A DNA stretch of 43,903 bases from NCBI GenBank assembly GCA_947623815.1, contig CANQHO010000003.1:1-43903 (forward strand), given 5' to 3'. Made by a program: the position numbers and the translations under genes. This stretch comes from an uncultured Bacilli bacterium. Its GTDB lineage: Bacteria > Bacillota_I > Bacilli_A > RF39 > UBA660. Position 1 is the stretch's first letter; every line of letters begins with the position of its first letter. The notes under the pieces were generated by a model. That model searched no databases. It saw only the letters and a list, made by a program, of their open reading frames with translations, and had not been told where the DNA came from. This document shows positions 6,031 through 27,628 of the stretch, one piece after another.

Positions 6031-6057
6031 AAAGAAAATAGTTTTTCTATTTTCTTT
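6031..6057 (-). terminator. Intrinsic terminator after the pilin-amidase gene
   Basis: aaagaaaatag...ctattttcttt inverted repeat followed by Ts on the minus strand. Confidence 0.7.
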
Positions 6058-7954
6058 AACTATTCCTACAAAATTCGTAAAATTCACCTTTTCCTTTAAC
6101 TATTTTACATTTTTTCCCTGAGGCATCTTTTTCACCGACTGGACAATATCCAGTAGAACTAAAATAATAGCAATACCATTTATCTTTTCTTGTACATTTT
6201 CCACCATGCCATTCACAGCCTTGTTGACCTTTAAAAATGTTTGTACAATCAGAATAAGTTTTATATAATTTACAAATATCACTACTTGATTTTTTTTCTA
6301 AATTTTCATGTACTCCATAATTATTATTAGAGTTACTATTTGAATTACTATTGCTGCTAGAACTATTTGAACTACTGCTTGAGCTACTACTAGAACTACT
6401 TGTTGAACTATTAGAACTACTACTATCAGTAGTACTTCTAGCAATTTTACTACCATAATGTTTTTTAAATACATTAGCTAATTCTTTAGCTATTTTTTCT
6501 TTATTTTTATTATATTTATTCATGGCAGCTGTATTATCGTAAAACTCGGTTTCTATATAAGTAATCGGAATATTTAAGCTTTCAAAATAATTAACATTTT
6601 TTAAACTTTGGGTGATGTTACCCATGCTTTTACCGGTATATTTTACTACAGCTTCTTTCAATTCTTTATCGATACTAGACATTCCTTTAGTTCCCAACAT
6701 TAAAAGGGTTCCCTGAGCCGTATGTGAATCACTGGCATTAAAATGAATTTCAATAACATGGGTAAATTTTTTAAATTTCTTTTCATTATTCTTAAATGTT
6801 TGGGTTTTTAAAACATTTTCCACATACATTGATTTATTCATTTTAGCATCTGTTCCACCCAACATTTCATTGGCAATTGAAGCTTTTAAGTTTAAATTAT
6901 CTAATTCTTTTTTCAACAGTTTAGCTAGTATTCTAGTTTGATCTGGTTCTAAGTATTTATATCCACTTTCTTCACGACATTCATTGCTTACTTGGGCACA
7001 ATATGGATAATAAGAGTGACCGGCAATTATCAAAATTCCACCATCACCTTTACTTTTACTGGTGGAAATTTCATCGATTTCCCAATCATCTTCCAATACT
7101 ACTCTATTGGTTGTTTCTGGATTAGGAGTTTTACTAGGTGTTTTATTTTTTCTATCATTGGCACCGGGGTCAATGTATCCGGCCTCTTTACAGTCTGATG
7201 CACTTGTTAAAAAGCATGATACACATCCCATAAAATTATCTTTACTTCCAACTCGGCCAAATACCCACTGAACTATAGCTAGTACAAAGAATATGGCGAC
7301 ACCAGCTATAAGCCTTCTGGTGAATTTATTTTTTTGTTCGTCCATATCTTTTTCTTCACTACTTGTTGTTGCTTTAAAAAAGTCTAACATTCCTAAGGCA
7401 ATTATTATTATTGGAATTAGTAATTTCAATATATTGAATAAAGCTCTAACATACATAGGTAAAGTTTCTGGTATTTGATCTTTGGTATTTCCTGTACAGG
7501 TTATAGCTTTTATTTTTCCTTCGTTTGGGTCTTTACTACTATTATCTTCTTTTTTGGTAGTACTACTACCTGTAACATCTACCGGCATACAGGAATTATT
7601 TTTAACTTCACATTCGTTGCTTCCAACTTTTTTAGGGCATTCGTCAGCTTCATAGTCATAACATGTTTTACTTTCGGAAGTATCAACCGCATTTCCTTCG
7701 GAATCAACGGTAGTAACACATTTATCGTCCTTAACTTCACAGGTCATTCCATTTACTTCTTCAGGACACCCCAAATCCGGATAATCTTCACAATAGGCAT
7801 CTTTACAGGTATTCGATGTTTGATAACAAATTTTACCTTCTGAAGATTTGACTGGACAATTACTCACCTCATATTCATCACATGTTTTGGCAGCATTAAC
7901 TTGAGAAGTAAATAAAATAAAACTAAATAAAAATAATAATATTTTTTTCTTCAC
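6056..7954 (-). CDS. Membrane protein: signal peptide, Cys-rich repeats, TrbC/VirB2-pilin-like 2-TM core, N-acetylmuramoyl-L-alanine amidase (Amidase_3-like), Ser-rich linker, Cys-rich tail
   Basis: Signal peptide MKKKILLFLFSFILF..VNA; CxDYxxxxCP repeats; core ILKLLIPIIIIALGMLDFFKA...KFTRRLIAGVAIFFV; amidase Zn and catalytic motifs IIAGH, E, IEIHFNA, YIETEF. Confidence 0.8.
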   Translation of the reverse strand: MKKKILLFLFSFILFTSQVNAAKTCDEYEVSNCPVKSSEGKICYQTSNTCKDAYCEDYPDLGCPEEVNGMTCEVKDDKCVTTVDSEGNAVDTSESKTCYDYEADECPKKVGSNECEVKNNSCMPVDVTGSSTTKKEDNSSKDPNEGKIKAITCTGNTKDQIPETLPMYVRALFNILKLLIPIIIIALGMLDFFKATTSSEEKDMDEQKNKFTRRLIAGVAIFFVLAIVQWVFGRVGSKDNFMGCVSCFLTSASDCKEAGYIDPGANDRKNKTPSKTPNPETTNRVVLEDDWEIDEISTSKSKGDGGILIIAGHSYYPYCAQVSNECREESGYKYLEPDQTRILAKLLKKELDNLNLKASIANEMLGGTDAKMNKSMYVENVLKTQTFKNNEKKFKKFTHVIEIHFNASDSHTAQGTLLMLGTKGMSSIDKELKEAVVKYTGKSMGNITQSLKNVNYFESLNIPITYIETEFYDNTAAMNKYNKNKEKIAKELANVFKKHYGSKIARSTTDSSSSNSSTSSSSSSSSSSSNSSSSNSNSNSNSNNNYGVHENLEKKSSSDICKLYKTYSDCTNIFKGQQGCEWHGGKCTRKDKWYCYYFSSTGYCPVGEKDASGKKCKIVKGKGEFYEFCRNS

Positions 7955-7956
7955 AA

Positions 7957-8538: not shown

Positions 8539-8611
8539 AATACATCACCTTTTTCTTTTTTTAATTATATCATATGTATTTATTTAGTGGCAACTTAAAT
8601 CAATTTAACTA

Positions 8612-8640
8612 TTGTCAAATATTGTAATTTGTGATATTAT
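8612..8640 (+). promoter_or_regulatory. Sigma-A promoter divergent from engB
   Basis: TTGTCA-N17-TATTAT with extended TG. Confidence 0.6.
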
Positions 8641-8645
8641 TTATA

Positions 8646-8712
8646 GGACATCACACTCGTTATTTTTATTTTTTACGTGATAGTCTATAAGTCCTTATTT
8701 AAGGACTTTTAT
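8646..8712 (+). ncRNA. Candidate small non-coding RNA (about 65-70 nt)
   Basis: Lies right after the sigma-A promoter. Stem gac-atcac...gtgat-a-gtc, then terminator agtcctt-attt-aaggact-ttt; no ORF or RBS. Confidence 0.45.
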
Positions 8713-8847
8713 TGTTTGGACTTTTTTGAATAAATTGAGAACTATTTTGGTATATCCAAAAAATAATTTATAAACTAATATTCGACATATTTTGACTATA
8801 TCTAGTTTTATAATAGCAACTTAACAAATTCAAAAAAGAGGAAAACT

Positions 8848-9719
8848 ATGAAAAAAACAAAAGAAAACAGGAACTTGTTTCATTAACAAATGACTTCACC
8901 TTTAAGCAAATTTTTTAAAAAAATCCCATCTTTTTAAAAAAATTTATTAAAGATGTTTTACATCTAGATTTTGATATTGAATCTTTGGATATACAAAATT
9001 CGGAACTAGTAAAACTTAATAAAAACGAGCGTAAAAAAGTTTTAGATATTTATGTAGTTCTAAATGATTTTTATAATCTATCAATTGAACTAAAAAACTG
9101 TGATTATTCCAGTGTTAAAATTAGAAATTTTTTATACCTTAACTCAATTTATAACTCTTTATATAAAAAGGGACAAAAAATTAAAGATGTAAAAGCCAAA
9201 GCAGTTCAGTTAAACTTAAATGTTTTATCTAATGAATTTGACAATTTAGATGGAAAATGTTCTGTTTAAGATCAAGTTAATAACACCGTTATTATTGATA
9301 ATTATAAAATAATCAATAAAAATCTTGCTTATTTAGACGACATAACTTATAATAGGGATAAAGAAAAAGAAATTGCTTGGTGTAGAGCAATTAAGGCTAC
9401 AACTTATAAAGAATTAGATAAAAATTTAAGAATTGTTTTATCTGATGAAGAACGAAAACTATTTTTAAAGGAGGTCAAAAAATTGAATAGTGATAATTTT
9501 TTATATGAATATTGGAAAGATGAAGATGTCAACGAAGTAGTTAGAGAATTGAAACTTGCTCATGCTGAAGAAAAAGGATTTGACAATGGATTTGATAATG
9601 CATCTAAAGAATTTATCAAAAATATGTTGTTAAATGGTGCTGATCTAAACTTTATTTCTAAAGTGTCTGGCAAATCCACCAAAGAAATAAAAACTTTACA
9701 AAAACAACTAATCAATTAA
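8848..9719 (+). pseudogene. Rpn / PD-(D/E)XK nuclease family (PDDEXK_2-like), disrupted
   Basis: LTNDFTFKQIF, LDIYVVLN...IELK and C-terminal EEKGFDNG...IKNMLLNGADLNFISKVSG. Lesions: frameshift shortly after the ATG at 8848, TAA at 8916-8918 and TAA at 9267-9269. Confidence 0.8.
9483..9719 (+). CDS. Intact C-terminal mini-ORF of the Rpn gene (candidate RpnS-type intragenic antitoxin)
   Basis: TTG start preceded by a strong AAGGAGGT Shine-Dalgarno at normal spacing; 78 aa, uninterrupted. Confidence 0.6.
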   Translation: MNSDNFLYEYWKDEDVNEVVRELKLAHAEEKGFDNGFDNASKEFIKNMLLNGADLNFISKVSGKSTKEIKTLQKQLIN

Positions 9720-9736
9720 AAAACAGAATATAAAAA

Positions 9737-9770
9737 CGGACTGTAGAATTTTCAAACAGTCCATTTTATT
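9737..9770. terminator. Terminator between the rpn remnant and the end of the T7SS operon
   Basis: ggactgt...acagtcc inverted repeat flanked by A and T tracts. Confidence 0.65.
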
Positions 9771-9774
9771 TTTA

Positions 9775-9915
9775 TTAAAATTTTTTTATATTTTTTCTTG
9801 TCTTTATATTATCTTGCAATTCTTCATATTTTTGACCATGTTTGTTTTTGATTTCAATTATTTGTTCCTTATTTTTTTTGATTTTTTCTAATAATACCTT
9901 TTTTTCTTCATTCAT
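9775..9915 (-). CDS. Small basic coiled-coil-like protein (46 aa), not in the ORF track
   Basis: Hand-translated MNEEKKVLLEKIKKNKEQIIEIKNKHGQKYEELQDNIKTRKNIKKF. AAGAGGT RBS overlaps the stop of the upstream gene, and it ends just before the terminator. Confidence 0.6.
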   Translation of the reverse strand: MNEEKKVLLEKIKKNKEQIIEIKNKHGQKYEELQDNIKTRKNIKKF

Positions 9916-9918
9916 AAA

Positions 9919-10602
9919 TTACCTCTTGATATAATTTTTTTTACATTTAACACTAAATTCATCATATTTTATTACATTAAATGGTATATTGGTTTCTTTT
10001 CTAACCTTATACTCTAAAAAATTAGTTAATACATCTAATTTTCCCAAATTATTAGCTAAAGAAGAAACTTCATAATTATTTTTATACTGATTATATCTAA
10101 CTCCAATAATAATAGAATTACTAGGTTTATAATATTTCTTATTATCTGGGCCATAATTTATATTCACATTTTCTTCATTAGGATTTTCTAAAATAACATT
10201 TTGATAAGTATTTTCGATAAATTGGAAATTTGAGGAGTTTAAAGATAAATCACCAGTTTTATATATAGACCATAAATAATTTATCTGTTCTCTAGTTAGT
10301 CGTTCTATATAGATGTTATTTCTTAAATAAAAATATTTTAAATACCCTTCTGAAAGATGTTGATAAAGATCTTTTTCTTCATAAGGAACTAAAGGAAAAT
10401 CATCTATTCTTTTTTCTAACTGTTTATCAACATCTAACAAATAGTATTTTTTCATCATAAATTGAATAAGTAAATTATTATAAACATTATATAAAATCAA
10501 ATAACCATTCATTTCTGCATCAGACTTAATATTACATTCTTGTCTTATATTAGGCCTTTCTAATAACAAAAATTCTTCATCTATAAAATTTACTTTATTC
10601 AT
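9919..10602 (-). CDS. Hypothetical protein coupled to the giant T7SS-locus gene (candidate immunity or accessory)
   Basis: 227 aa; start overlaps the upstream stop (ATGA); no signal peptide or recognisable family. Confidence 0.7.
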   Translation of the reverse strand: MNKVNFIDEEFLLLERPNIRQECNIKSDAEMNGYLILYNVYNNLLIQFMMKKYYLLDVDKQLEKRIDDFPLVPYEEKDLYQHLSEGYLKYFYLRNNIYIERLTREQINYLWSIYKTGDLSLNSSNFQFIENTYQNVILENPNEENVNINYGPDNKKYYKPSNSIIIGVRYNQYKNNYEVSSLANNLGKLDVLTNFLEYKVRKETNIPFNVIKYDEFSVKCKKNYIKR

Positions 10603-13600
10603 TCTATTCCCTCCACAACATTAAAGTAAAGACTAAATCTTTTTCCAATCAAATCTTTTATTGGAATCAAAAGTCTTTTACCCCAACTACTAACAACTAA
10701 ATAATCATCTAAAATTCCCGTTATGAAAACAGCATGACCATCTCCTTCTTCCCAAGTTGTTGTTGTTGTATAAACTTCATCAATACTAGACATAAGTCTA
10801 ATTGGTTTGCTTATTTTAAATAGTTCTTTTTTTTCACTAATAATACTTAAAACTATACCATTATTTTCATCTTTTTTCAAATAATTAATAATTGTTTTTT
10901 TAAATTCATTTACATTATTTTTAGTTAACACTTCTTGTTTAGGATCAAAGGTTTTAATAAGATTTCTTTTATAATTTAATTTTATATTTTTACTTTTTAG
11001 AAAAGCTTCAATAATTGTATTATCCTGCCAACCCAAGCCAGATAAATATATTTGATTATTAGTTATTAAATTATCAACATGTAATTTACCAGTTTCATCA
11101 TAAACAAACAAATTCCCTTTTTTACTTCCATTTAGATATTTATTACTATTTATATAAACATACATATCCAAAATTAACTCTGTATAATTAAACTCTTTAT
11201 GTCCATCGATATTTCTATACATTAAATATCCAAAATCTTTTTTGAAAGCTCTAGGATTATCTTTATAAGCTAAGAATATTGAATTAGCTATTGCTGCATA
11301 AGAACAAGTTCCAGAACTATTTATAGCCATTAAAGTTCTAATAGCTTCAAAATAACTCATACCTTGGGAAACTAGTTTTCTTTCTAATCGCATAATTTCA
11401 TTATTATAATCGAAGGTAAAACTTTGTTCTATTACATCCAAAATATCAAAACTATTATCCCGATTACATTTATCATAAAGATATTCAATAATTATAGTTC
11501 CTTCTCTAACCACATCTAAATTAAAATTGGAATTTTTAGACTTTATTTTACTTAAAAATTGTTTAGCTGTATTTACACTATATTCTCTTTTCTTAATTAA
11601 ATAAGAAATAAAATCATTTTCATCTGTTAACCAATCTAGATTTTTTACACCCATCGTCATATAAAATGAAGTTATATTTTGATCAGCACCATATATTTGA
11701 CTAGAATTATTTTTTATAAATAAATCATAGTTTTCTAATACTTGTTGTATCATTTTTTCTTTAATAGTTTCCGGAAAAACTTCATTATAATCAATATTGT
11801 CTAAACTAATATTTTGATGATTAGTAAAGTAATTGTTTATATATTTTATAACACTTGGATTTTTCATATTAGCATACGCTAATAACTTTTTAAAGTTTTC
11901 TTCACTTATGTCTATATTTTGAGTCACTATTTGGGTTAAATCATCTAAAAATATTTTACTACAATCGGCATAAGAAAGATGATTAGATGACTCTTCATTA
12001 GTAAAATTTTTACTAACTTTTAAATAATAAAGCATAAATAAATCATTAAATATAAAATTAGGATCATTTAAATTTTCTTCCGTAATTATTTTATTCATTT
12101 CTTCAATAATTAAATTTTTATCATAAATTTTGTTATCCCTCAACATAAGTTTAAGTTTCAAACTATTTGGCATATCTTCAGCATATACTATAGGAACATC
12201 AATGTTATATTTGTTTATAAAACTATCAACAAATTCTCTATCATTTTGATCCCAATTATATTTCTGATGAATAATATCATTAAATCCTTCTTTTCCAACA
12301 TCTATTTTATTTTTAATTATAATATCGGTATATTTTGTATTCATATTCTTTATTTGTTGAAAAAAGTCTATATATTTATGTTCAAGTAAACCGGGACTAT
12401 CATCATAAACATCTTCAGCATTTTGACGAATAAAATCTCGAACTTCAATTAAATAAAATTTAAATTCATCGGATAATATTAAAGAAGGATTATTAGATAA
12501 TATCTCTTGATTAAAATGTTCTTGGTAGTAATTATATAAAATAGATAAATCTTCAACATTATAAATTTTATTAGTTTTAAACATTATTTTTAGTTTTAAA
12601 CCATCTGATAAATTATCTTTATATCTAACTTTAGAAAAATCTAATTTTTCTAAAGCTTCATTATATAAAGATTCTAATCTTTGTAGTTGAATACTATTTA
12701 AATCTAAATCATAATTATATTTTTTAATTGCATCATATAGTTGCATAAAAGCTTCTAAATAATTTATTTTATAACCACCATCTATAGCTTTTCCATTTTG
12801 TAAAGCTTCATATAAATCTTCATTTTTTATAATATCTAATAAACTTCCAATTGATGCTATTTTTACAAAAGTAGCATCTAAATCTTCATCATAAAAGTTA
12901 AAAACCATATCTTTAGTTGCTTCTATATCATTAGTTTTGTTTAATTTATTATCTATTTTTTTAATTAGTGAATCAATATCGATATCAATTTCATTAGCCC
13001 TAAAAGTTATTTCATAAGTAGCATCAAATTTTCTATTTTCATCTTCTAAAATATCTTTTAAGTATTGAAGTTCACTTTCCGAATTACAATTTTCTATTGC
13101 TTTATTTAATACTTCATTTATTCTATCAGCTGAAAAATATTTATTAACCAAAGAAATATCCGTTGGATTTCTATAACCACTTCTATTATTTTCATGTAAA
13201 ACTAAAATATCTTTTATTAACTTTATATTATTAGTATTATTATATTCCGCTATCAAGTTATCTATCTTAGTACTTTCTTTAATAGCTAAATTATTTATAA
13301 TATTTTCCGTATTGTCATTTTTTATTTCCATATTTGTAAAAGAAGATAATTCTGAAACTGAGTTTCTATTTATTTCTTTTACATTTTTATTTAAGAATTT
13401 ATTATTAGCTGCTAAGTCATATAAATAATCATTATAAATAGCTTTTAAATTACCTATTTTTTTAGTAAATTTTTGTAATTTTTTTCCCTCGATAGTATTT
13501 GGATAATTATCATAGGTATTTTTATCTACTTCCTTATACACTAATTCATTTCCCATTTTAACTAAACAAAAATATTTCTTTTCAGGATTATAATCTGATA

Positions 13601-16600
13601 TATTTAAATTACCTTCGTAAGTTATAGCTTTATCATCTAAATTCCTTATTTTTAATTTATTACTATTTACTAATTGTTCATCAACATTTAATTTTACAGC
13701 TGTTGTTCTAATTGGTAAACTATCTAAATTAGTTAAATAAGCTCCAACACTTGGTACGCCATTAAAGAAAAATGATTTTGGAGTTCCATAACTATTCATA
13801 ACATTGGCTTTTTTTACATAACCAGATTCTATTATCTTATTAGCACTTGTTTCCGATGTAAAATGATAAAGACCATTTTCTAAAATACTTTTATTGACCT
13901 CTTCAATATTATTAGTGTTAGTATATATAAAACGTTTAACTCCTGATTTAAGGGTATTTACAAAACCAGTTATTAAATTATTATCTTGATATTTAAAATC
14001 ACTTAAATCTAACTGATTACTAAAATCATAAGTACTAACACCACCTAAATCAGTTAAAAGATTGATTAAGCTAGTATTTATAAAATTGTTGTTTCCTTCC
14101 AAAGCCAAAAGACCATCTTTAGTGACTTTAAAACCATTTTTGGTAAATATATTCTTATATTTTTCTAATGTTTTAATACTTGCTTCAATATAATATTCAT
14201 CACCATCTTTATTGAAAACAATTTGGGCATGTTCAAAATTAGAATTGTTTTTTATGGTATTGATTAAGCCAATATAATTTCCTACTATTTTGGGGATATC
14301 TTCAGTCATTTTGGTTTGAATTCCTTTACTTATTGAGTCAAAGAAAACATTTGCATTTCTAACATCATCGCCACCATATCCGATATAACCTTCATTACCA
14401 TTTGTAGCCGTAGCATTTTGATAAACAATATTAAAATTCTGATTATCCAAAGACGCCACAATAGAGGGAATTAAAGCCATATTTTTTTGATTGTCAACAA
14501 AAGCCAAATAAGGTCCTCTTCCATCTTCATGTCCAGCACAACTAGCTTTTGTCTCTATTTTACTATTAAAACACTCTAATAATAGTTTTTCCAGTTTTTC
14601 ATTTCCTTCCGCAAAATCATGAGCCGCTTTTTTAATATCGGTTAATTGACTTAACGGTATTGGCACTCCTGTATTTAAACTTTCTGTACTATTAACATTG
14701 GTAAATGTTTTACCACTATTATTATCAATATTACTAAAAATATTTCTTATTCTATCGATAGTTTCTTGTCTTTTAGCCCGTTTTAGTTCTTTTAATTTTT
14801 GCTGTTCCTTTTCTTGTTCTAGTTGATTTATTTTTAATTGTCTAGCAAATTTTTGAGCTTCATTTAAATTTAAGTTACTATAAAAATCGTTTAATATATC
14901 ACTTGATATTTGATTTGAGATCCTATGATTTACTTTTATACTTCCAAATCCCCCAAATCCTATTCCGGATACAAAACCTCCTAAAAATGTCTGTTCTAGT
15001 TGTTTGGCAAAATCTTTATTGGCCATTTGTCTAGCAACATCTTCACTATATCCTTGTTTTATATAATTATCTATAGCTATATTATGATTACTTAATTCTC
15101 CTGATGTTATCTCATCAAAAAAGTAATTTACCAAATCTGTACTTAATTCTTCTTCGCCTTCTACTAAAGCTTGACTCATCGTCATTGCTCCCCCATAAAA
15201 GGTTTTGGTGGCGATAGAAGCTAAAGTTTCATTTGGTATTTTATCAGATATTTTATTAGCTATTTTTACTATTTCAGGACTAGCTTTTCCCTCTAAATTA
15301 AGTAAATGACTTACTGAATAACTTTCCATAAGTGATTCAGTTATTCCAGCTGAAGACGCTAATAAAACTGCTTTCCAATCGGGCAAACCTCTATCTAAAG
15401 AATCATTTAATGTAGATACATATGCTCTTGATCCCATTAAGGCTCCACTTAATATTGGAGCAGTTGTCCCTCCAGTGGCGGCAGTTATGGCTATCAAACT
15501 GGCACTATCAGCCATACTCATCATCGTACTATAAGCAAAAGCTAAGGCTTCACTATCTTCCGCTATATCAGCACTTATAGCTTGTCGATATACATCACTA
15601 CTACTATAGACATTAGTCTTTCTTATTTTCTCATCTCTTATTAAGTAATTTAGGGAATAACAAGCTGCTCCTATTCCTTCTAATGATCCGGTTAGTATTG
15701 ATGAAGCAGACGCTAAAAATTTATGATTTTTCGCATATTCTTCATCTTTTAAGGTTCTATCAACTAACCATCTATTATCTAACTCGTCTGATATATCTTC
15801 TAAGTATTTATATGCTTTATCTAAACCTTGGGTATTATATATATAATTAAATACATCTTTTTCTTGTCTTCCTTGACCACTCATGAATTCTGCCCATTTT
15901 AAATAGTGGTCTAATTTTAAATCATCAGCTTGAATTTGATAGTTTCCTTTCTCAGTTTGAACAAATCCATATTTATCTATTTCTATTTTTCCATTTATTA
16001 TACAGTTTATTATATCTACTAATTCTTCTTTATTTTTTACTATATAAGTTGGACTTCCATTATTTGTCCCAGGTAATTTACCTTGTTCAAATAATTTATT
16101 TATATTTTCTATTGTTTTTATACTTTCTTTTTTAAAGTTATTATTTTTTTCATAATCTTTTTCACTTATATAACTATCAATATTTTTAAAATAATGATTT
16201 ATTTCTTTATTTACGTTTTCATATATAGCTTGATAATTAGCTAAACTTTGTTTTAATGTTTCTATTTGATTATCTATTTTTTTTAAGTTTTCTTCTCTTG
16301 TTTTTACTTCTTCATTATATTTATTAGTCAATTCATCAAAAAATTTCATCTGTTCAATAGTATTATTCCACATATATACGGTGGTTTCTTTTCCGGTAAA
16401 CAATGATTTTGATGTTACTTTAGTTAAATTTCTTAATTTTTCGATATATTTACTATCTTTATACATTTCCTCAAAAGTTAGTGGTACATATTTTATATCA
16501 CTTTCCAAATTAGGAGTTTTATAAACATATCTAGTTTGTCCATTTTCATCTTGATATTTCCACGCTACTATTTCACTTGATAAAATACTTTCTAAATTTT

Positions 16601-17654: not shown

Positions 17655-17668
17655 GATTACAACCCCTT

Positions 17669-17911: not shown

Positions 17912-17920
17912 ATTTTCTCC

Positions 17921-18223
17921 TTAGTTAATATCTTTAAATATTTGAGTAACTTTATGACTAGTTTCTTTATATGTTTCAATTTTTTTAATTAAATAGTCAA
18001 GATCATTTTCATGTATATTTTGAATAGTTCTAAATTTATTAGTTAATTGTTCTTGTAAATCATTTAATGAATCACTATTAGAAGTTTTATAATAATAATT
18101 GATATTTTTAAAGGTATTTTTTATCTCATCAAAATTTACATCTATCATAGCTTTATAAGTTTTGATTTTTTCAATTGTCATATTCATTTTTTCAATATCC
18201 ATTAAATTTTCCAAATTACTCAC
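17921..18223 (-). CDS. WXG100-fold-like small protein
   Basis: 100 aa with a helix-turn-helix pattern; central YYKT where WxG normally lies; in the essC locus. Confidence 0.55.
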   Translation of the reverse strand: MSNLENLMDIEKMNMTIEKIKTYKAMIDVNFDEIKNTFKNINYYYKTSNSDSLNDLQEQLTNKFRTIQNIHENDLDYLIKKIETYKETSHKVTQIFKDIN

Positions 18224-18767: not shown

Positions 18768-18779
18768 TTTATCACCTAA

Positions 18780-18827
18780 TTTTCCTAAATACATAAAAGT
18801 GAATATACTTTTACATATTTAGGAAAA
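18780..18827 (-). terminator. Long intergenic hairpin (terminator or mRNA stabiliser)
   Basis: ttttcctaaata-tgt-aaaagt...actttt-atg-tatttaggaaaa on the minus strand, a stem of about 21 bp with G-U pairs. Confidence 0.7.
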
Positions 18828-18845
18828 ATAAATTTTCCTATTTGT

Positions 18846-19487: not shown

Positions 19488-19530
19488 TATTTCACCTCCC
19501 TCTTTTCGGATATGTTCCTTATCCATAATA

Positions 19531-19560
19531 ATCATATCACAATTTTTATATAAATATCAA
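19531..19560 (-). promoter_or_regulatory. Sigma-A promoter for the WXG100-like/effector cluster
   Basis: TTGATA-N18-TATGAT with extended TG. Confidence 0.5.
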
Positions 19561-19624
19561 CATCTTATATTTTTTTCGTGACATTTTTTCAAAAAAATAT
19601 TAAACTAAAATTATTTTAAATAAT

Positions 19625-19659
19625 AAAAACCAGTTTATATACTTTCAAACCGGTTTTTA
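19625..19659 (-). terminator. Terminator after the esaB-like gene
   Basis: aaaaaccggttt...aaactggttttt hairpin on the minus strand. Confidence 0.65.
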
Positions 19660-19666
19660 TCAACTT

Positions 19667-19933
19667 TTATTCTGATTTAAAAATCAATATTAACTCTGTA
19701 CCATTTCTAATATCTGTTTCAATTAAAATATCATTATTTGAATATATTTTACTAGTATCTTTATTTAATAAAATAACTTCATCATCGATATTTAATGGAA
19801 TATTTTTTAAGTCAGCCACTGATTTAATAATCAACTTTTTAATTTTCCATACCAATTCATTAACTGGCAAAAAAAGATCAAAACTAGTATCCAAATCGGG
19901 AATAAATAATTTAACTAATACCTTATTTTCCAT
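19667..19933 (-). CDS. EsaB/YukD-like ubiquitin-fold T7SS protein
   Basis: Likely start MENKVLVKL at 19933, overlapping the essC stop; FDLFLP and C-terminal L.ETDIRNGTELILI fit the YukD/EsaB pattern. Confidence 0.75.
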   Translation of the reverse strand: MENKVLVKLFIPDLDTSFDLFLPVNELVWKIKKLIIKSVADLKNIPLNIDDEVILLNKDTSKIYSNNDILIETDIRNGTELILIFKSE

Positions 19934-22900
19934 CTTGTTCCTCTTTTCCAAAAAAATTAAGTAATTTACAAAGAGTGGTAACACTATCACTTACAACATA
20001 TCCCATATTATTAGAAATATCTAACAACAATTGTTTAGTAATACTAGATAAATGCAATAAATTTTGACTACCTATACCATTGCCAATCCATATACCATTA
20101 TTGACACTAAAGAAATTATTAAACCATGTCTCAAACGCAAACTGTTTTATTTTAGCTGCATCATCACATATAACAACAGCTATTTTTTCATATTTCTTAA
20201 TCTTTTTAATAAAATCTTCCATTTTTCTTTTATCATCTAATTTGTTGATAAATTTATTTAAACCATAAATTAAAATAATTCCTTGTTGGTTGGAATGATT
20301 ATTTATTAGCTGATCTAAATAATTACTTATTCCATCCATATATTTATCTATATTATCAGTATAATAATTTGAATAATTATTATCCAATTTAAGAGCCTTT
20401 AAAGGATCAAATATCATTAAACTAAGATTAGGAATTTTACGAACTTCTTCTATAAAACTTTTTACAAATATATTGGTAGCATTTAATCGATTAGCAGTTA
20501 TTATATAACCTAAATTTGATAATAAATCTATGGTATTTACTTCTAAATTCTTTTTATTCATACCAACTGGAATACTACTAATATCACCAATATAATTTAA
20601 AACATTTTCCCAAGTCACAAATTCAGGTAATACTGGTATCAATTTAGCTTTATAAGTATTTTTCTGATTGACTTGTTCAATAAATTTACTTAAATATTCA
20701 TTTAAATTATTTTCATCTTCTAAAATACTGGCAGTTTGAAATTCATGAATTACATCTTGTTTTAATAATCCTCGACCAATTATATCCCTTAAAGTGACTC
20801 TAACTCGCATACCAAAAACGGATACATAATCACTAGAATCTTTCATTCTAAAAGCATAAACATTAGAACAATTCTGACTAATTTTATTATGGACAGAATT
20901 ATTAGCATTAGCGGTTATAATAAAGATAATACCATATCTTTCTGAATCTCTAATTATATCGGGAAGTTCATCATAAATACTTTGATTAGATTCATAAATA
21001 GAATCATAATTGTTTAAAACAATAATTTTTAAAGGAATTGGTTCTTTATTTTGAATATAACTTTCATATGAACCTCCAAAATTCACAAATTGCTTTTTTC
21101 TTTGTTGTAATTCTTCTTTAATCAGTTTAAACAAATTATTGTATTTTTCATCTTCACCCGCAAAGACAATTCCTCCAACATGAGCTAAATTTTGAAATCT
21201 TCTTAATGATTCGGAACCATAGTCAATAAAGTAAAAATTAACTTCATCAGCTTGATGATTTTTGACTGTAGAATAAATCATGGCATTTAAAAGCATTTCA
21301 CGTTCACTACCATCATTACCGTAAATAATAGTATTTCCATTGTTTAAATAATCATAACAAATAAGACCTTGTTCTTGGATTTCTGGAGCATCATACTCTC
21401 CTATTACGGCTTTAACATGATATTTAACTGGAGTATAATTATATTTACTTTCCAAATTATTAACTGTTATAATTGGTGGAATATTATCTAACCATAATTT
21501 TCTAGCTTTTTTATTTACACGTTCTGATGCCGAAATAATAGAATTCATAATAGAAGCTAATTGTTCGCCTTTAGCTTCTAATTTTATATTAGAGGCAGCT
21601 TGTAAACTTTTAACAATTACTCCACAATCATTGATAAAATTTATACTTTTATCTACTTGTTTAATAATAGTATCCGAAGGATAGTATTTAGCCCCACACC
21701 AAGCTGATTGACCTAAAGCAAAATATTCATCAAATCCAACTTGCAGATAGAAACGTCCGGTTTGTTTAATAAAAGCGGCTTCAGGTCTTTTAAGCATTTC
21801 TTTACTATCTTGTTCATCTTGAACTTTTAAACAAACTCTAAATTTAGCATTTGACCAGATTTGATCATTTACTACTCCACTTGGTTTTTGAGTTGCTAGA
21901 ATAAGGTGAACACCTAAAGAACGTCCAATTCTGGCAACACTTATTAAGTTGTCCATAAATTCCGGTTGTTGGGCTTTTAATTCAGCAAATTCATCACATA
22001 TTATAAATAGATGAGGAATAGCTTCACTTAATCTTCCATCTTTATAAAAACCTTGATATTTATAAATATTCATGGTGCTTTCCCCTAATTTATCACGAGC
22101 TTCATTAAATATTTTTTGTCTTCTTTTAACTTCACTATCAATACTAACTAAAGTTCTATCCATCTCCGCTTTATCTAAGTTGGTAATTGTTCCCGCTAAA
22201 TGCGGTAAAATTATATTATTAGTTTTGTTTTCAAAAGCAAAAGCTAAACCTCCACCTTTATAGTCAATTAAAATAAACGATACATCATCCGGACTATAAT
22301 TGATACACAAAGATAAAATATAAGTAATAATAAACTCTGATTTACCAGATCCTGTCATACCAGCTATTAAACCATGAGGTCCATGGTAGGTTTCATGTAA
22401 ATCTAAGTACATTAAATCACCATTTTCATCAACCCCTATTTCGGTTTTCAAACTTTCAGTTGGCGTGCTAGTATTCCATCTATTTAATATATTTAATTGT
22501 TCTACTTTACCTATTTTTTCCATTTCTAAAAATGATAAAGAATCTGGTAAAGACCGCATATCATTTTCAAATTCAATTGGAATGTTAGATAAAGTTTTTA
22601 CTACTTTACTTAAATCAACCGGATAATTGGTATCATTAGTTACCGTTATTTGTTCTTGTTCTTCATAAGCATTTTTAAGTACTTCAGTGTTATTATTAGA
22701 AACACTAATAAAGTTATTACATTTACTTGGTAATTTACTTAATTGATTTTCTAAAATAACTAAACTAAATCCCAAATTATCATCCATTTCAGTTACTGTT
22801 TTCGCAAATTCAAATCTTTTTATTTCATCATATCCATCAACAATAATAAAGTAATAAGGTTTAAAAATTGTTTTTTTATTGGATAATTGATTTATACGAC

Positions 22901-24473
22901 TATTAAGTTCGACTTGTAAATACTCATTGACAATTTTAGCACTTTCACTGGTAGTCGAATAAAATCTAAAATTACGATCATTACTAAAAATGTGATTGGT
23001 GTAACGAAAATTATCCCAATATTTTTTTCTTTCTTCATTAGTAAAAATAACTAATTTAAAATCTTCATAACTATAAAAAGTCAATAATTGTAAGATAATG
23101 TTATACATAAATGGTATGGTATTATTAGTAAATCCCATAACAGCAGTTATTTTATTTTCATAAAAAGAATAACCAATAGGAACGTTTTCAATATATTTAA
23201 ATTCTTCTACCAATTGATCAGCCTTTTCTCTAAGTTCATCTTCTTCAATTGTAAAGTCTTCATCGGGATATTGAATTTCAACATCTAATTTTTCATTTCC
23301 TATTCCTATTCTAGTTACTAAAAAATCACTTTGATCAATTCTTTTATCCCAAAAGTTAATTCTTTTATTTTCAATTATTTGTAAACATTCTTCTACCGTT
23401 AATAAGTTTTCTATTAAAATCTGTTTTTGTAAATTAGCTTCTCTCATTAAATCTAATTTTTTTTCGTCTAAATAACGACCATATTTAGTAATGATTTCTT
23501 TTTTTCTTTTCTTTTTCATATGTTTATTGTAAGCTTGAGTCAAAATAGGCCATAATATCATACTAATAAACATAGCCCCACTAGTTACTAATTGCGGCCA
23601 AGAATCTTCCATTGTTGTTTGTTTATTATTTATTCTTATAATAGTACTTACTAACATAGTAAGAGACATAATTCCCATGGTAAGCATTGGTCCAATTACT
23701 AAAATAACTGGCAATTCATTATTATTGCCATCTCTAGGTGGTTCACTTAATTTTATTTTTTTGGTTTCGATTATTCTTCTTAATCTAGGTGATTTAGAAT
23801 AGTAATCTTTTTTATCATATAAATCAACATCTTTAAATTCTCTTTGTTCTATTTTTTCTGGTTCAGGAAACAAATAAGGCGTTAAATGAGCTTCATTATT
23901 TACAATTATGTTATTATTATATATCAATACTATTCCATTTAAAAACACGATTCTAAATCCATAAAGTTCTACTGTATCACCAAATTTTATATAACTAGCA
24001 TTACCTTCTAAGGAATATTTATTTATATATACTGGGGTATTTCCTTTTTTTTGCAGTAACAAATAGTTATTTTGGTAAGATATTTGTAATACTAAATCAT
24101 TTAAATATTTACTTGGAAATTTTAAGGTAGCATTTTCAGTATTACCGATAATAAGATTTATATCAGTTTTATATGTATATGAAAGCATCACTCCAGGACT
24201 TATTTGGCTAACATAAATTAAATAACTAACATTATCTCTTTTTAAAATATAAAAATTATTAACTGCTAATTCAACTTGAGCTACTTGAACCTCATTTAAA
24301 AAGACTTGAACATTTTTACTTTGGCATAAAACCCACTTATCGTTTATAGCTTCAATATTGATAAGTTTATTTTCTTCATCTTTATTTACATCAAATAAGA
24401 AACTACCAGCCACTTCAAAAGGAAGTTCAAAATCAACTATTCTGTTAGCTAAATATAAAGATATCTTCATCAT
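19923..24473 (-). CDS. essC: Type VII secretion ATPase EssC (FtsK/SpoIIIE family)
   Basis: 1516 aa; FHA-like beta-rich N-terminus, SPR motif, two TM helices, HGPHGLIAGMTGSGKSE, IDYKGGG, LPHLAGTITNLD, DEFAELK, ARIGRSLGVHLILATQKPSGVV; degenerate D2 and D3. Confidence 0.95.
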   Translation of the reverse strand: MMKISLYLANRIVDFELPFEVAGSFLFDVNKDEENKLINIEAINDKWVLCQSKNVQVFLNEVQVAQVELAVNNFYILKRDNVSYLIYVSQISPGVMLSYTYKTDINLIIGNTENATLKFPSKYLNDLVLQISYQNNYLLLQKKGNTPVYINKYSLEGNASYIKFGDTVELYGFRIVFLNGIVLIYNNNIIVNNEAHLTPYLFPEPEKIEQREFKDVDLYDKKDYYSKSPRLRRIIETKKIKLSEPPRDGNNNELPVILVIGPMLTMGIMSLTMLVSTIIRINNKQTTMEDSWPQLVTSGAMFISMILWPILTQAYNKHMKKKRKKEIITKYGRYLDEKKLDLMREANLQKQILIENLLTVEECLQIIENKRINFWDKRIDQSDFLVTRIGIGNEKLDVEIQYPDEDFTIEEDELREKADQLVEEFKYIENVPIGYSFYENKITAVMGFTNNTIPFMYNIILQLLTFYSYEDFKLVIFTNEERKKYWDNFRYTNHIFSNDRNFRFYSTTSESAKIVNEYLQVELNSRINQLSNKKTIFKPYYFIIVDGYDEIKRFEFAKTVTEMDDNLGFSLVILENQLSKLPSKCNNFISVSNNNTEVLKNAYEEQEQITVTNDTNYPVDLSKVVKTLSNIPIEFENDMRSLPDSLSFLEMEKIGKVEQLNILNRWNTSTPTESLKTEIGVDENGDLMYLDLHETYHGPHGLIAGMTGSGKSEFIITYILSLCINYSPDDVSFILIDYKGGGLAFAFENKTNNIILPHLAGTITNLDKAEMDRTLVSIDSEVKRRQKIFNEARDKLGESTMNIYKYQGFYKDGRLSEAIPHLFIICDEFAELKAQQPEFMDNLISVARIGRSLGVHLILATQKPSGVVNDQIWSNAKFRVCLKVQDEQDSKEMLKRPEAAFIKQTGRFYLQVGFDEYFALGQSAWCGAKYYPSDTIIKQVDKSINFINDCGVIVKSLQAASNIKLEAKGEQLASIMNSIISASERVNKKARKLWLDNIPPIITVNNLESKYNYTPVKYHVKAVIGEYDAPEIQEQGLICYDYLNNGNTIIYGNDGSEREMLLNAMIYSTVKNHQADEVNFYFIDYGSESLRRFQNLAHVGGIVFAGEDEKYNNLFKLIKEELQQRKKQFVNFGGSYESYIQNKEPIPLKIIVLNNYDSIYESNQSIYDELPDIIRDSERYGIIFIITANANNSVHNKISQNCSNVYAFRMKDSSDYVSVFGMRVRVTLRDIIGRGLLKQDVIHEFQTASILEDENNLNEYLSKFIEQVNQKNTYKAKLIPVLPEFVTWENVLNYIGDISSIPVGMNKKNLEVNTIDLLSNLGYIITANRLNATNIFVKSFIEEVRKIPNLSLMIFDPLKALKLDNNYSNYYTDNIDKYMDGISNYLDQLINNHSNQQGIILIYGLNKFINKLDDKRKMEDFIKKIKKYEKIAVVICDDAAKIKQFAFETWFNNFFSVNNGIWIGNGIGSQNLLHLSSITKQLLLDISNNMGYVVSDSVTTLCKLLNFFGKEEQDGK

Positions 24474-24496
24474 AACACCTCTTTATTGTCATAATG

Positions 24497-24525
24497 ATTA
24501 TATCAAATTAAAGTATTTATTTCAA
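24497..24525 (-). promoter_or_regulatory. Sigma-A promoter of essC
   Basis: TTGAAA-N17-TATAAT with extended TG. Confidence 0.75.
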
Positions 24526-24547
24526 TCAAAAATATAATGAGTCTATA

Positions 24548-24584
24548 ACAAAAAACTTAGCTTTGATAAAACTAAGTTTTTTGT
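24548..24584 (-). terminator. Terminator after the pilin-SGNH gene
   Basis: acaaaaaacttag...ctaagttttttgt 13-bp inverted repeat. Confidence 0.8.
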
Positions 24585-24595
24585 AATCAACATTA

Positions 24596-26194
24596 CTATA
24601 AACATTTTTTCTTTATTTGATTATAAACTGCTGTATATCCAGCATCCGTATAATGTAATAAATCAGAAGCATATTTTCCTTTTAAAGATAGATCTTTATT
24701 TATATTACAATAACTGACATTACTCAATTTAGCAGATGATATTTTAGACTTCATTGCTGAATTAAAATCACTTATATTAGTTTTAGTTACTGGATAACTA
24801 CCACCCGTAGAATCACCACCTATAGGTGTTACAGATCCAAAAATTATATTTTGATTTTTCCAATCACCTTTAGCAAGCTTCTTTACTATATCCATATATT
24901 TTGTAGCTACTGCTTTAACCTCTGATGACGTACCAGAAATATCATTTACACCTAATAATATAACAATATTATACTTAGTATTTGAATCATTTTTTAGAAT
25001 GGTAGTAACTCCATTAGATCCGGTTTGTTCAAACCAAATATAACCTTTTCCCGTTTGACAAACAGCTTGATAATCACGACATGTTCCAGAATAATAACTA
25101 TCACCAACACCACAAATACCAGCAGTTCTAGAATCACCTAACAATATAGTTTTAGTTCCCTTTTTATTTTTCTTAGAAGACTTATTATCATCATCATCTT
25201 TAGTATTAGTAGTTACAGTATGGGTTGATTTTGGTGGAACTTTAGTTGGGGTTTTATTTTGGCGATCATTAACAGCAGGATCAATATATCCAGCATCTCT
25301 ACAATCAGATTCTGTTGTTAAGAAACAAGATACACATCCCATAAAATTATTTTTTTCTCCAACTAGTCCAAATACCCATTGACTAATAGCCATAACAAAG
25401 AATATCGCAAGTCCAGCAATTATTCTTCTAACAAACTTGTTTTTTTGATCATCCATGTTACTTTCATTAGAACTTGTCATGGCTTTAAAGAAATCTAACA
25501 TACCTAATACAATTATAATAATAGGAACTAATAATTTTAAAATATTATATAAAGCTCGGACAAAAGCTGGCAAACCAGCTGGTATTTGATCTCCATCATT
25601 CCCCGTACAGGAAATAGCTTTTATTTGGCCTACACTACCGCCACCGGTATCAGTAGAAGGAGTTGTAGGATTTTCCATTTCTTCTTTAGTCGTTGTTGTA
25701 ATACATGCTTTTGATGTCGAACTACAAACACTACCATTTAAACTAGTTGGACAATCTTCTCCTGGCTCATAATCTTCACATTTAGTTTCACTTTTTAATT
25801 TACAACCAGTTTTGGTTTTCCCACAAGCATTTCCATCGGCATAATCAGGGCAAGCATCCTTGCTATAATCGGAACATATTTTATGGTTTTGATTAGTTGC
25901 TGCATTGATACACTTTTCGGTTGTTTCATCGTAATCACATAATTGTCCCGTACTATCCAAACCACAAGATTTCTCTCCAAATATTAAATACTTTTTTTTC
26001 GGCTCAACACTAGAACACGGTGTTTTTATTGTTTTAAAATCGCACTTTCCATCGATAACTGCACATGTATTTTTTTTATCATCTGTTTTATGTTTAGAAC
26101 AATCCTTGGTAGAATAATCCGTACAATACTTTCCATAAACACTAGGTACTAGTACAAAAAAACATAAAATAATAAACAACAATTTTTTCTTCAT
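24596..26194 (-). CDS. Signal peptide, Cys-rich repeats, TrbC/VirB2-pilin-like core, SGNH/GDSL hydrolase
   Basis: Same core as 6056..7954; SGNH blocks LLGDS, G (TGKG), LLGVND and DLLH. Confidence 0.8.
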   Translation of the reverse strand: MKKKLLFIILCFFVLVPSVYGKYCTDYSTKDCSKHKTDDKKNTCAVIDGKCDFKTIKTPCSSVEPKKKYLIFGEKSCGLDSTGQLCDYDETTEKCINAATNQNHKICSDYSKDACPDYADGNACGKTKTGCKLKSETKCEDYEPGEDCPTSLNGSVCSSTSKACITTTTKEEMENPTTPSTDTGGGSVGQIKAISCTGNDGDQIPAGLPAFVRALYNILKLLVPIIIIVLGMLDFFKAMTSSNESNMDDQKNKFVRRIIAGLAIFFVMAISQWVFGLVGEKNNFMGCVSCFLTTESDCRDAGYIDPAVNDRQNKTPTKVPPKSTHTVTTNTKDDDDNKSSKKNKKGTKTILLGDSRTAGICGVGDSYYSGTCRDYQAVCQTGKGYIWFEQTGSNGVTTILKNDSNTKYNIVILLGVNDISGTSSEVKAVATKYMDIVKKLAKGDWKNQNIIFGSVTPIGGDSTGGSYPVTKTNISDFNSAMKSKISSAKLSNVSYCNINKDLSLKGKYASDLLHYTDAGYTAVYNQIKKKCL

Positions 26195-27628
26195 TTTTTT
26201 CTCCTTTTATTTTAACTAACTTTTTAAAGTAATGCGGTAAGCATAAAGAAATCTTACTTTAGGTAAATCCATAACTAAAGGTTGCTTAGTCAATATTCTC
26301 TCTGGAGTTCCACAATCATATCTTTCCCATTTACCATTTTTTCTTTTATTTCCTAAAATAAATACATGGCTAACAGTTTTACCAACCGCTCCAGCTCTTT
26401 GAAAAATAATATCTCCTGGTTGAACATCACTCATATTACTTATTCGTTTGAAACCATGTTTTTTAACCCAAGCAGTCATATCTCGTTCTTTATTTGGATT
26501 CCAAACTGTTAAACCTTGAACTTTAGGTTGATCCTTAAATCCCAATCTATATAAAACCCATCCTACACACCGATCACAACTAACTTTTTTAGCAGCATGA
26601 TTCATGGCCGGATTATATGGTGCATCTCCATAAGTGAATTTATGTTTTCTAACATAATCAGTTACCCATTTTGCCTCTTTTAAAATCTTTTCCGCATCAG
26701 GGTTAACCAAACCACCTATTACGGCCGTATTCGTTGATTTGGGTGGAGTTTTATTGGGACTTTTATTTTGCCTATCATTAACAGCTGGATCGATATATCC
26801 AGCATCAATACAATCCTCTCCACTAGATAAGAAACATGATACACATCCCATAAAATTATCTTTTTCACCAATTAGTCCAAATACCCATTGACTTATAACC
26901 ATAACCAAGAATATCATTATTCCCCCTAAAATTCTTCTGATAAACTTACTTTTTTGGCCATCCATATCACTTTCATTACCACTAGTAGCAGCTTTAAAAA
27001 AGTCCAACATTCCTAAAATGATAATTATCGAAGGAACTAACAATTTTAAAATATTATATAAACCTCTTACAAAAATAGGTAAATTTTCTGGTATTTGATC
27101 TTTAGCATCACCAGTACAAGTTATAGCTTTTATTTGACCGGTACTGCCTTCCTCAGTATCTGTATAAGCAGTGGTTTCTGTATCAGTAGTGTCCTCTGTA
27201 TTACTAACATTATTTTCGAATTCTTCCTTAGTTATACAAGCATTGGCAGTTGGACTACAAGCCACCCCATCGGCATAATCAGGACAATTATCGGCATTGT
27301 AATCAGAACATAATTTATGATTTTGATTAGTTGCCGCATTGATACACTTTTCGGTTGTTTCATCATAAGTACACAACTGTCCAGTACTATCCAAACCACA
27401 AGATTTCTCTCCAAATATTAAATACTTTTTTTTCGGTTTGACACTAGAACATGGAGTTTTTATTTTTTTAAAATCACATCTTCCATCAATAACTGCACAT
27501 GTATTTTTTTTATCATCAGTTTTATGATTAGAACAATTACTATCAGAATAATCTGTACAATATTTACCATTAACACTAGGAACTAATATGAAAAAACATA
27601 AAATGATAAACCACAATTTTTTCTTCAT
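25890..27628. repeat. Tandem paralogue duplication (near-identical 5' regions at about 25890-26194 and 27320-27628)
   Basis: Long shared DNA stretches, e.g. tactatccaaaccacaagatttctctccaaatattaaatacttttttttcgg in both genes. Confidence 0.9.
26216..27628 (-). CDS. Signal peptide, Cys-rich repeats, TrbC/VirB2-pilin-like core, NlpC/P60-like peptidoglycan amidohydrolase
   Basis: Likely start MKKKLWF at 27628 (AAGGAGG RBS); head has FTYG, SCDRCVGWVLY (Cys), VQPGDIIF and HVFI (His). Confidence 0.78.
   Translation of the reverse strand: MKKKLWFIILCFFILVPSVNGKYCTDYSDSNCSNHKTDDKKNTCAVIDGRCDFKKIKTPCSSVKPKKKYLIFGEKSCGLDSTGQLCTYDETTEKCINAATNQNHKLCSDYNADNCPDYADGVACSPTANACITKEEFENNVSNTEDTTDTETTAYTDTEEGSTGQIKAITCTGDAKDQIPENLPIFVRGLYNILKLLVPSIIIILGMLDFFKAATSGNESDMDGQKSKFIRRILGGIMIFLVMVISQWVFGLIGEKDNFMGCVSCFLSSGEDCIDAGYIDPAVNDRQNKSPNKTPPKSTNTAVIGGLVNPDAEKILKEAKWVTDYVRKHKFTYGDAPYNPAMNHAAKKVSCDRCVGWVLYRLGFKDQPKVQGLTVWNPNKERDMTAWVKKHGFKRISNMSDVQPGDIIFQRAGAVGKTVSHVFILGNKRKNGKWERYDCGTPERILTKQPLVMDLPKVRFLYAYRITLKS

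Follow-up and report, generated by a model that had tools for sequence, protein, structure and literature searches.

Three unrelated predicted enzyme domains joined to the same pilin-like hairpin core in a lineage of uncultured Bacilli

We analysed a 43,903-nucleotide stretch of DNA from an uncultured Bacilli bacterium (GenBank assembly GCA_947623815.1, contig CANQHO010000003.1, positions 1 to 43,903; hereafter the window), which contains three minus-strand genes whose products, here called A, B and C, combine one N-terminal architecture with three unrelated C-terminal enzyme domains. The shared part consists of a signal peptide, Cys-rich repeats and a core of two hydrophobic helices, and the core belongs to a family with small pilin-like members that adjoin a type IV secretion system (T4SS)-like gene cluster in relatives of this organism. 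The three proteins are probably, though far from certainly, exo-enzymes tethered by a co-opted pilin-like hairpin, and would likely form a set that remodels the organism's own wall. A type VII secretion system (T7SS) island situated between the fusion genes is unrelated to them and looks like a later insertion.

The window is AT-rich (~27% G+C) and includes the sporulation gene SpoIVA; its source is an uncultured small-genome gut bacterium, whose assembly (designated G000; 1.36 Mb in 96 contigs) is 94.6% complete.

Results

A common N-terminal architecture with unrelated C-termini

Aligned with each other, A, B and C have in common a signal peptide, N-termini rich in Cys and a block dense in invariant residues, after which the similarity breaks off soon past an AGYIDP..NDR.NK.P.K.P motif. 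The cores are 61–76% identical to each other, and blastp of the post-core parts against each other returned no meaningful match, bearing out the three-gene family with a shared core and unrelated C-termini that a first-pass annotation had proposed from the letters of the window. The N-terminal regions contain 12, 16 and 12 Cys in A, B and C, respectively, arranged in modules of four, and every core contains four Cys. In A, the core runs from a Cys through a transmembrane helix, a short loop and a second transmembrane helix to C..C..C and the AGYIDP..NDR.NK motif; in hydropathy windows, the signal peptide of all three proteins precedes two hydrophobic helices that a short loop connects, and an AlphaFold model of the C core has helices at residues 22–56 and 59–93 with pLDDT > 90 (the alignment-based model of protein C was used, the single-sequence version reaching a pLDDT of only 40).

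With a signal peptide and two hydrophobic helices, parity would place both the repeats and the enzyme head outside the cell, in agreement with the orientation originally suggested. A link between the conserved N-terminal Cys and the C-terminal C..C..C may hold the ends of the core together, whereas T-pilin and TrbC are cyclised. The predicted extracellular parts of A, B and C hold 20–26 Cys each. Neither the N-terminal Cys repeats of A nor its 8-Cys C-terminal module matched a Pfam family.

Identity of the three heads

The head of A matches Amidase_3 (PF01520) with 32.6 bits (cut-off 27) over profile positions 1–170 of 174, and with 35.9 bits in a second search; GHS, EPD, EIHFNA and IETEF occur in its sequence in that order and may represent the zinc ligands (His, Glu, His) and the catalytic Glu. 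Similarly, the head of B matches Lipase_GDSL_2 (PF13472) with 36.3 bits (cut-off 32.9; 39.2 bits in a second search), and its LLGDSRT, LLGVNDI and DLLHYT, found in that order, may correspond to blocks I (GDS), III (GxND) and V (DxxH). The head of C reached 13.5 bits against NLPC_P60 (PF00877; E 0.073), under the 23-bit cut-off, and has a papain-like NlpC/P60 fold; SCDR..W, PGDI...H.F and RYDCG are kept across this head and its homologues as candidate catalytic motifs. All three enzyme identities of the first-pass annotation were thus recovered, two over Pfam cut-offs and the third by its fold. At the thresholds used, the three heads retrieved nothing from PDB sequences.

The family of the C head comprises 32 clusters (P0167–P0198) with no Pfam domain on record, and one of its members, P0167 (293 residues), has a pilin-like N-terminus too.

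Kinship of the core with T4SS pilins

Against PF18895 (T4SS_pilin), for which the curated gathering cut-off is 26.6 bits, A scored 20.7 bits (25.6 in the six-frame search), C 18.9 (22.7 in the six-frame search) and B 18.2. When the core of A (P0001) was searched exhaustively with phmmer, 4163 cluster representatives were retrieved at E ≤ 1e-3, of which 657 reached E ≤ 1e-10. Among the 150 best of these homologues, counted by hand, 72 match PF18895 at E ≤ 1e-3 and 14 exceed its cut-off, with up to 35.5 bits; the passing homologues are tied to the core at E 1e-16 to 1e-25, and a 181-residue pilin of a relative (G017) attains 36.4 bits. As judged from these profile scores, the membership of A, B and C in PF18895 is transitive and not direct.

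The core occupies an N-terminal, middle or C-terminal position in the 150 homologues, which are 112–632 residues long, and 15 of them carry an enzyme domain (NLPC_P60, CHAP, Peptidase_C39_2, Peptidase_M23, GDSL, Amidase_3 or Esterase), indicating that fusions of a pilin-like hairpin with a hydrolase are common in metagenomes. In an alignment with 30 small members, the signal peptide precedes a conserved Cys and helix 1 (...P....G..D); a short polar loop with RR at its end then leads to helix 2 and C..C. The cores of A, B and C retain every invariant or near-invariant residue of these small pilins.

No match to PF04956 (TrbC/VirB2) was found for A, B, C or their homologues. In hhalign, the core profile gave a probability of 0.04% against VirB2 of pTiC58 and 0.1% against 23 VirB2 homologues, an alignment so narrow (55–93% identity) that very distant kinship lies beyond its reach. 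Among PDB sequences the core profile found no pilin and chance matches only, and a fold search with the hairpin gave generic helical matches only. The label "VirB2-like" accordingly draws on Pfam family, on architecture and on gene neighbourhood, and not on demonstrable homology to PF04956; of the VirB2/TrbC-like core that had been put forward at first, the kinship with PF18895 stands (18–26 bits for A, B and C) and the similarity to TrbC/VirB2 does not.

Small members lie in T4SS clusters, enzyme-headed members in housekeeping loci

A T4SS-like chromosomal cluster is conserved in the relatives (22 loci annotated) and present in most genomes of the window's family (f1). It starts with small pilin-like genes and proteins with an N-terminal extension and a C-terminal core, continues with a TrbL_4/VirB6-like protein (~600–770 residues), three small open reading frames (ORFs) and a VirB4-like ATPase of 594–596 residues, and ends with a wall hydrolase (CHAP, M23, glucosaminidase + CHAP, or Peptidase_C39_2) and a VirD4-like coupling protein. 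Of 78 core matches in 26 relatives, 42 lie within 12 kb of a VirB4-like gene, in 20 of the relatives, and this proximity was seen for 30 of the 47 small and 12 of the 31 larger matches; small paralogues of the core adjoin VirB6-, VirB4- and VirD4-like genes. Among the loci of relatives that carry the cluster are L036–L038, L041, L042, L052 and L053.

The cluster of G000 itself is located on contig C15 (L033, 3396–16707), while A, B and C, the sole core-family members detected in this assembly, are encoded on contig C3. On C15, a MerR gene, a VirD4 fragment and an IS91-type transposase hold the place of the pilins upstream of the VirB6-like gene. Neither of the relaxase families PF03432 and PF02486 was found in G000.

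Enzyme-headed members belong to housekeeping loci. In the window the order is dnaJ / SprT-like / C / B ... ysxC / A / der, with gaps of 21 nt from C to B, 2 nt from ysxC to A and 122 nt from B to the T7SS gene essC. All 17 annotated members with an enzyme or C-terminal extension in relatives lie outside T4SS operons: those of G006 follow rplU-rpmA and stand beside VanY, an NLPC_P60-headed member of G024 adjoins YceG/MltG, a C39_2-headed member of G020 adjoins a XerC-like gene, an Exo_endo_phos-headed member of G008 adjoins tsaE, a headed member of G013 comes after a T7SS cluster, and two in G005 are found ~10 kb from virB4, past virD4. The C-terminal domains of homologues are diverse, as the first-pass annotation would require, with NLPC_P60, C39_2, Exo_endo_phos and Big_2 among them.

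The G008 protein (L051:9224-10363) joins the core to Exo_endo_phos with E 1.9e-15, and two core + Big_2 proteins of G007 (L044:8840-12327) stand amid ORFs of 249–252 residues, near a secreted-type endonuclease gene. In two more distant genomes of the same genus (G003, L039:9073-10428; G002, L040:7880-9397), proteins of 452–506 residues with a long N-terminal extension and a C-terminal core (PF18895 28.6 bits) lie next to genes for a XerC-like recombinase and a phosphoglucosamine-mutase-like protein, which makes this a second conserved locus apart from the T4SS.

The core marks one lineage

Among the 40 nearest genomes, all 24 from f1 contain the core, as do 2 of the 16 others; in a class-wide sample of 300, it was present in all 34 f1 genomes and in 2 of the 266 from other families. 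In this class sample, the core family marks one lineage of uncultured Bacilli, all f1 genomes of which measure 0.7–1.4 Mb. Relatives appear in public records under the labels uncultured Bacilli, Mycoplasmatota, Bacillota or Firmicutes CAG:884, and one such record is a circular contig of 1.2 Mb. By tblastn, neither a small family member searched against plasmids nor the core searched against phages gave a match in its collection.

Cores of one genome evolve in concert

The syntenic locus of a sister genome (G001) comprises, in its first half, hrcA, grpE, dnaK, pepF, dnaJ, a 255-residue ORF and fusions of 470, 392 (GDSL) and 438 residues, and in its second half a free GDSL gene, ysxC, a 624-residue fusion, a 137-residue ORF, der and spoIVA. 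The heads are orthologous between the two genomes, with 72% identity between A and the 624-residue fusion, 66% between B and the 392-residue fusion, and 60% between C and the 470-residue fusion. The cores of these orthologue pairs are 54–58% identical, as against 61–74% within one genome, and a maximum-likelihood tree of 43 cores unites A, B and C in a clade (support 98/97) apart from the G001 paralogues. Near-identical cores were likewise seen in paralogue pairs of G006, G007, G010 and G020, and in some of these pairs the two genes differ in both locus and head.

Evolution of the cores is thus concerted within a genome, whereas the heads remain orthologous from one genome to the other; the likeness of the hairpins in one cell is maintained either by gene conversion or by selection for mutual compatibility. 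Since the hairpins resemble each other while the heads diverge, they probably co-assemble or share one membrane partner.

The T7SS island is separable from the fusion genes

The essC gene between B and A is genuine (TIGR03928, 936 bits). Its position had suggested that the fusion proteins might serve the T7SS, a link that fails on two counts: the G001 dnaJ-to-der locus, with its four fusions, contains no T7SS genes or essC and nothing that matches window positions 8539–24595, and only 1 of the 78 core matches in the 26 relatives, in G013, lies within 12 kb of essC. In the comparison of essC with virB4 proposed at the outset, the core matches of the relatives sided with virB4. An essC over the cut-off is present in 12 f1 relatives, of which G013 alone has a core nearby (≤ 12 kb), and G003 (91% complete) possesses a fusion gene and no essC over the cut-off; a second essC of G000, on contig C19, has no core-family member near it. 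A promoter-like site (11/12 matches) and a hairpin, both consensus matches only, occur between B and essC. At the island ends no flanking direct repeats were seen, only AT-rich chance matches.

Discussion

We favour a reading in which A, B and C would act as an extracytoplasmic N-acetylmuramoyl-L-alanine amidase, SGNH esterase and NlpC/P60-type endopeptidase, respectively, each held at the outer face of the membrane by the same module of signal peptide, disulfide-type Cys repeats and two-helix hairpin. The hairpin would derive from the lineage's own T4SS-pilin-like family, the kin of PF18895, and would have been co-opted as a tether and display scaffold. The enzymes would most likely remodel the organism's own peptidoglycan during growth, separation and O-acetyl turnover, given that few other autolysins were seen: besides A, only a 223-residue ORF and one sub-threshold match represent Amidase_3 in G000, and a six-frame search of G000 for NLPC_P60 gave no match at E ≤ 0.01. 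That the head of B acts on peptidoglycan O-acetyl groups is conjecture.

Several observations weigh against this reading. The fusion genes are 48–65% identical between G000 and G001, whereas their non-fusion neighbours are 81–95% identical, a pattern more easily reconciled with exposed proteins, or proteins engaged in conflict, than with core autolysins. Nor is the family confined to wall remodelling, since Exo_endo_phos and Big_2 also occur as heads in relatives. The Cys-rich sequences of A, B and C imply disulfides, yet no gene for VKOR or a DsbA-like Thioredoxin_4 was found in G000 (DsbB was not searched for). The PF18895 scores of all three proteins fall short of the curated cut-off, and, with G000 in 96 contigs, absent autolysins or small pilins may simply be unassembled. 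Finally, a plain anchor needs no such conserved, co-evolving hairpin, which leaves room for a role in a fibre or the T4SS. The same diversity of heads, together with the housekeeping loci of the enzyme-headed members, weakens the earlier idea of a toolkit for breaching the walls of other cells.

Unlikely in our estimation, but the strongest of the alternatives, is a display on fibres, in which A, B and C would contribute minor subunits to a VirB2-like pilus that depends on the T4SS: VirB4 would take them out of the membrane, polymerisation would proceed on VirB6 with the termini outward, and the wall-cutting enzymes would be brought to a neighbouring cell for attack, feeding or mating. The core is kin to small pilin-like genes that adjoin VirB6-, VirB3-, VirB4- and VirD4-like genes in 20 of 26 relatives, all family-invariant residues are kept in A, B and C, and the homogenisation of cores within a genome is what co-polymerising subunits would be expected to show. 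Consistent with it are also the T4SS cluster of G000, with A, B and C as the only family members detectable there, the failure to find a relaxase in G000 and the small size of f1 genomes; in Patescibacteria, VirB2-like arrays that stand by a T4SS are essential for epibiotic growth, according to PMC12102498 and PMC12857230. Against this, none of the 17 C-terminally headed members in relatives is inside a T4SS operon, no similarity to canonical VirB2 was detected, the fold matches of the hairpin are generic, and heads of 170–350 residues and N-terminal extensions of 120–160 residues on every subunit would be hard to pack. According to a review (PMC12857230), moreover, a pilus has never been shown for any Bacillota T4SS. 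That the whole f1 family builds such a T4SS-dependent fibre, using enzyme-headed hairpins as modular subunits to open or feed on neighbours, we hold to be less likely again.

It is improbable that the proteins are released polymorphic bacteriolysins, in which the N-terminal part would be an export and maturation module and the heads, cut off at the conserved ...IDP..NDR.NK.P.K.P linker, would diffuse as wall-degrading toxins against competitors. The conserved N-terminal part with unrelated C-terminal enzymes, the abrupt break in similarity with a conserved linker motif just ahead of it and the fast divergence relative to neighbouring genes would all suit such toxins, and NlpC/P60 and amidase heads serve as antibacterial effectors elsewhere, the type VI secretion system effector Tse1 being among the fold matches of the NlpC/P60-type head. 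Yet the gaps between C and B and between ysxC and A leave no room for immunity genes, the 132-residue ORF after A has neither a signal peptide nor a Pfam family, no known trafficking domain, such as LXG, WXG or Rhs, was detected, and the heads are position-stable between G000 and G001, with no cassette turnover.

Least of all do we credit a role as accessory hydrolases that make way through the wall for the adjacent EssC machine, in the manner of EssH in Staphylococcus aureus: B does end just upstream of essC, with A on the other side of the island, and a 357-residue core protein of G013 with a Peptidase_C39_2-like part (E 0.008) follows a T7SS cluster, but the island-free locus of G001, the separation of core from essC in all but one of the essC-bearing relatives, the essC-negative G003, the solitary second essC of G000 and the promoter-like site and hairpin between B and essC make this very improbable.

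The tethered exo-enzymes that we prefer to these alternatives differ in construction from the known systems they resemble. The closest parallel is with the VirB2-like T4SS arrays of Patescibacteria (PF18895; PMC12102498). There, as in the family described here, small proteins with a signal peptide and two helices occur in several divergent tandem copies near VirB6-, VirB3-, VirB4- and VirD4-like genes, in a cluster that is chromosomal, near-universal in a reduced-genome monoderm lineage and without a detected relaxase. Unlike these arrays, A, B and C come from Bacilli, are encoded off the T4SS cluster, carry Cys-rich repeats and an enzyme, and remain below the PF18895 cut-off. According to the same source and PMC12857230, VirB2-type pilins are absent from Gram-positive T4SSs except those of Patescibacteria. 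Canonical TrbC/VirB2/TraA pilins (PF04956) share with the fusion proteins a cleaved signal peptide, a hairpin of two hydrophobic helices, a short polar loop and an arrangement with both ends outside, but no sequence or profile similarity was found, and they are ~70–120 residues long and have no enzyme domains.

The wall hydrolases of Gram-positive T4SSs (VirB1 analogues such as PrgK, TraG of pIP501 and CwlT) are likewise membrane-associated, peptidoglycan-cutting proteins of CHAP, NlpC/P60 or M23 type. They act together with a T4SS and are encoded inside the transfer operon, whereas A, B and C have a pilin-like hairpin and belong to the dnaJ-to-der housekeeping locus; that place in the T4SS operons of this lineage is already filled by separate CHAP, M23, glucosaminidase or C39_2 proteins. 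Housekeeping D,L-endopeptidases and amidases of Firmicutes (LytE, CwlO, SagA, Acd24020; Amidase_3 autolysins) lack a two-helix pilin-like membrane module with Cys repeats and use LysM, SH3b, coiled-coil or wall-binding repeats instead. Polymorphic toxins (LXG/T7SS, contact-dependent inhibition, Rhs) also combine a conserved N-terminal part with unrelated C-terminal enzymes across an abrupt break, but A, B and C have no adjacent immunity genes or known trafficking domain, and their heads are orthologous between sister genomes. Full-text literature searches, supplements aside, found no report of VirB2-like arrays in Bacilli or of pilin-hydrolase fusions, in line with the initial remark that no described system of this architecture was known to its author.

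What makes these findings of interest is less the T7SS than an enzyme carrier derived from a pilin, together with a T4SS signature like that of Patescibacteria in a second monoderm lineage, a Bacilli family with tandem pilin-like genes by chromosomal virB6, virB3-like, virB4 and virD4 genes. To this signature the family adds the reuse of the pilin hairpin as a carrier of exo-enzymes, the hairpins of one genome evolving in concert. If the hairpins do co-assemble, this would be a new way of organising surface enzymes in a monoderm; their entry into a fibre would mean a new kind of pilus and the first pilus-borne enzyme display, whether of an amidase, endopeptidase, esterase or nuclease, and would point to a second, independent T4SS-based dependent lifestyle among monoderms. 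Even on a sober reading, the analysis identifies what are likely the chief autolysins of a gut lineage about which little is known, and the core provides a sequence marker for that lineage.

Features of the window and neighbouring genes

Table 1. Positions of the fusion proteins, their parts and the T7SS island in the window.
Feature	Position	Strand	Description
Protein A	6056..7954	-	632 aa: signal peptide, three 4-Cys modules, pilin-like core, Amidase_3 head, Ser/Asn linker, 8-Cys C-terminal module
A, Cys-rich N-terminal repeats	7535..7891	-	aa 22-140, 12 Cys, CxDYxxxxCP x3
A, core (P0001)	7100..7537	-	aa 140-285; PF18895 25.6 bits
A, Amidase_3 domain	6473..7036	-	Pfam match
A, C-terminal 8-Cys module	6059..6292	-	after Ser/Asn-rich linker; from sequence
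Protein B	24596..26194	-	532 aa: signal peptide, four 4-Cys modules, core, SGNH/GDSL head
B, core	25220..25633	-	73% identical to P0001; PF18895 18.2 bits
B, Lipase_GDSL_2 domain	24632..25144	-	Pfam match
Protein C	26216..27628	-	470 aa: signal peptide, three 4-Cys modules, core, NlpC/P60-fold head
C, core	26729..27148	-	68% identical to P0001; PF18895 22.7 bits
C, NlpC/P60-fold head	26219..26737	-	family of 32 homologous clusters without Pfam domain
T7SS island, outside the system	8539..24595	-	no counterpart in syntenic G001 locus
T7SS island, content			essC 19923-24473; small WXG-like ORFs; 2351-aa ORF 10599-17654; 227-aa ORF; PDDEXK fragment 8985-9269

The three genes lie as the first-pass annotation had placed them; an alternative ATG at 27649 would lengthen protein C to 477 residues.

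Downstream of essC and the small WXG-like ORFs of the island, the 2351-residue ORF (minus strand) has an Asn/Ser-rich N-terminus and no Pfam or NCBIfam match, and is followed by the 227-residue ORF (9919–10602, minus strand); the former may be a giant T7SS substrate and the latter its partner. Between 17669 and 19990 (minus strand) we observed only weak ESAT-6-like matches (a 100-residue ORF, NF035934, E 3.5e-4), and EssA, EssB and EsaA were absent from the Pfam and NCBIfam matches of the island ORFs. The plus-strand fragment at the island edge, next to ysxC, resembles a PD-(D/E)XK transposase (PF12784, E 1.4e-7).

A 465-residue ORF of G001 (contig C12, L057:6656-8053) was rejected as a relative, having no core and no similarity to A, B or C; it is situated just upstream of an essC, its C-terminus matches NLPC_P60 weakly, and by eye its N-terminus resembles LXG.

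Elsewhere in the window, a run of four successive minus-strand ORFs (35013–39745; 208, 406, 633 and 269 residues) between hrcA and the BcrAD/HGD-D genes gave no Pfam match at E ≤ 1e-4. Directly upstream of C, a 256-residue ORF (27698–28468, minus strand) with an HExxH motif, a weak SprT-like match and no apparent signal peptide is kept at the same place in G001 (L034:7225-7989) with 58% identity.

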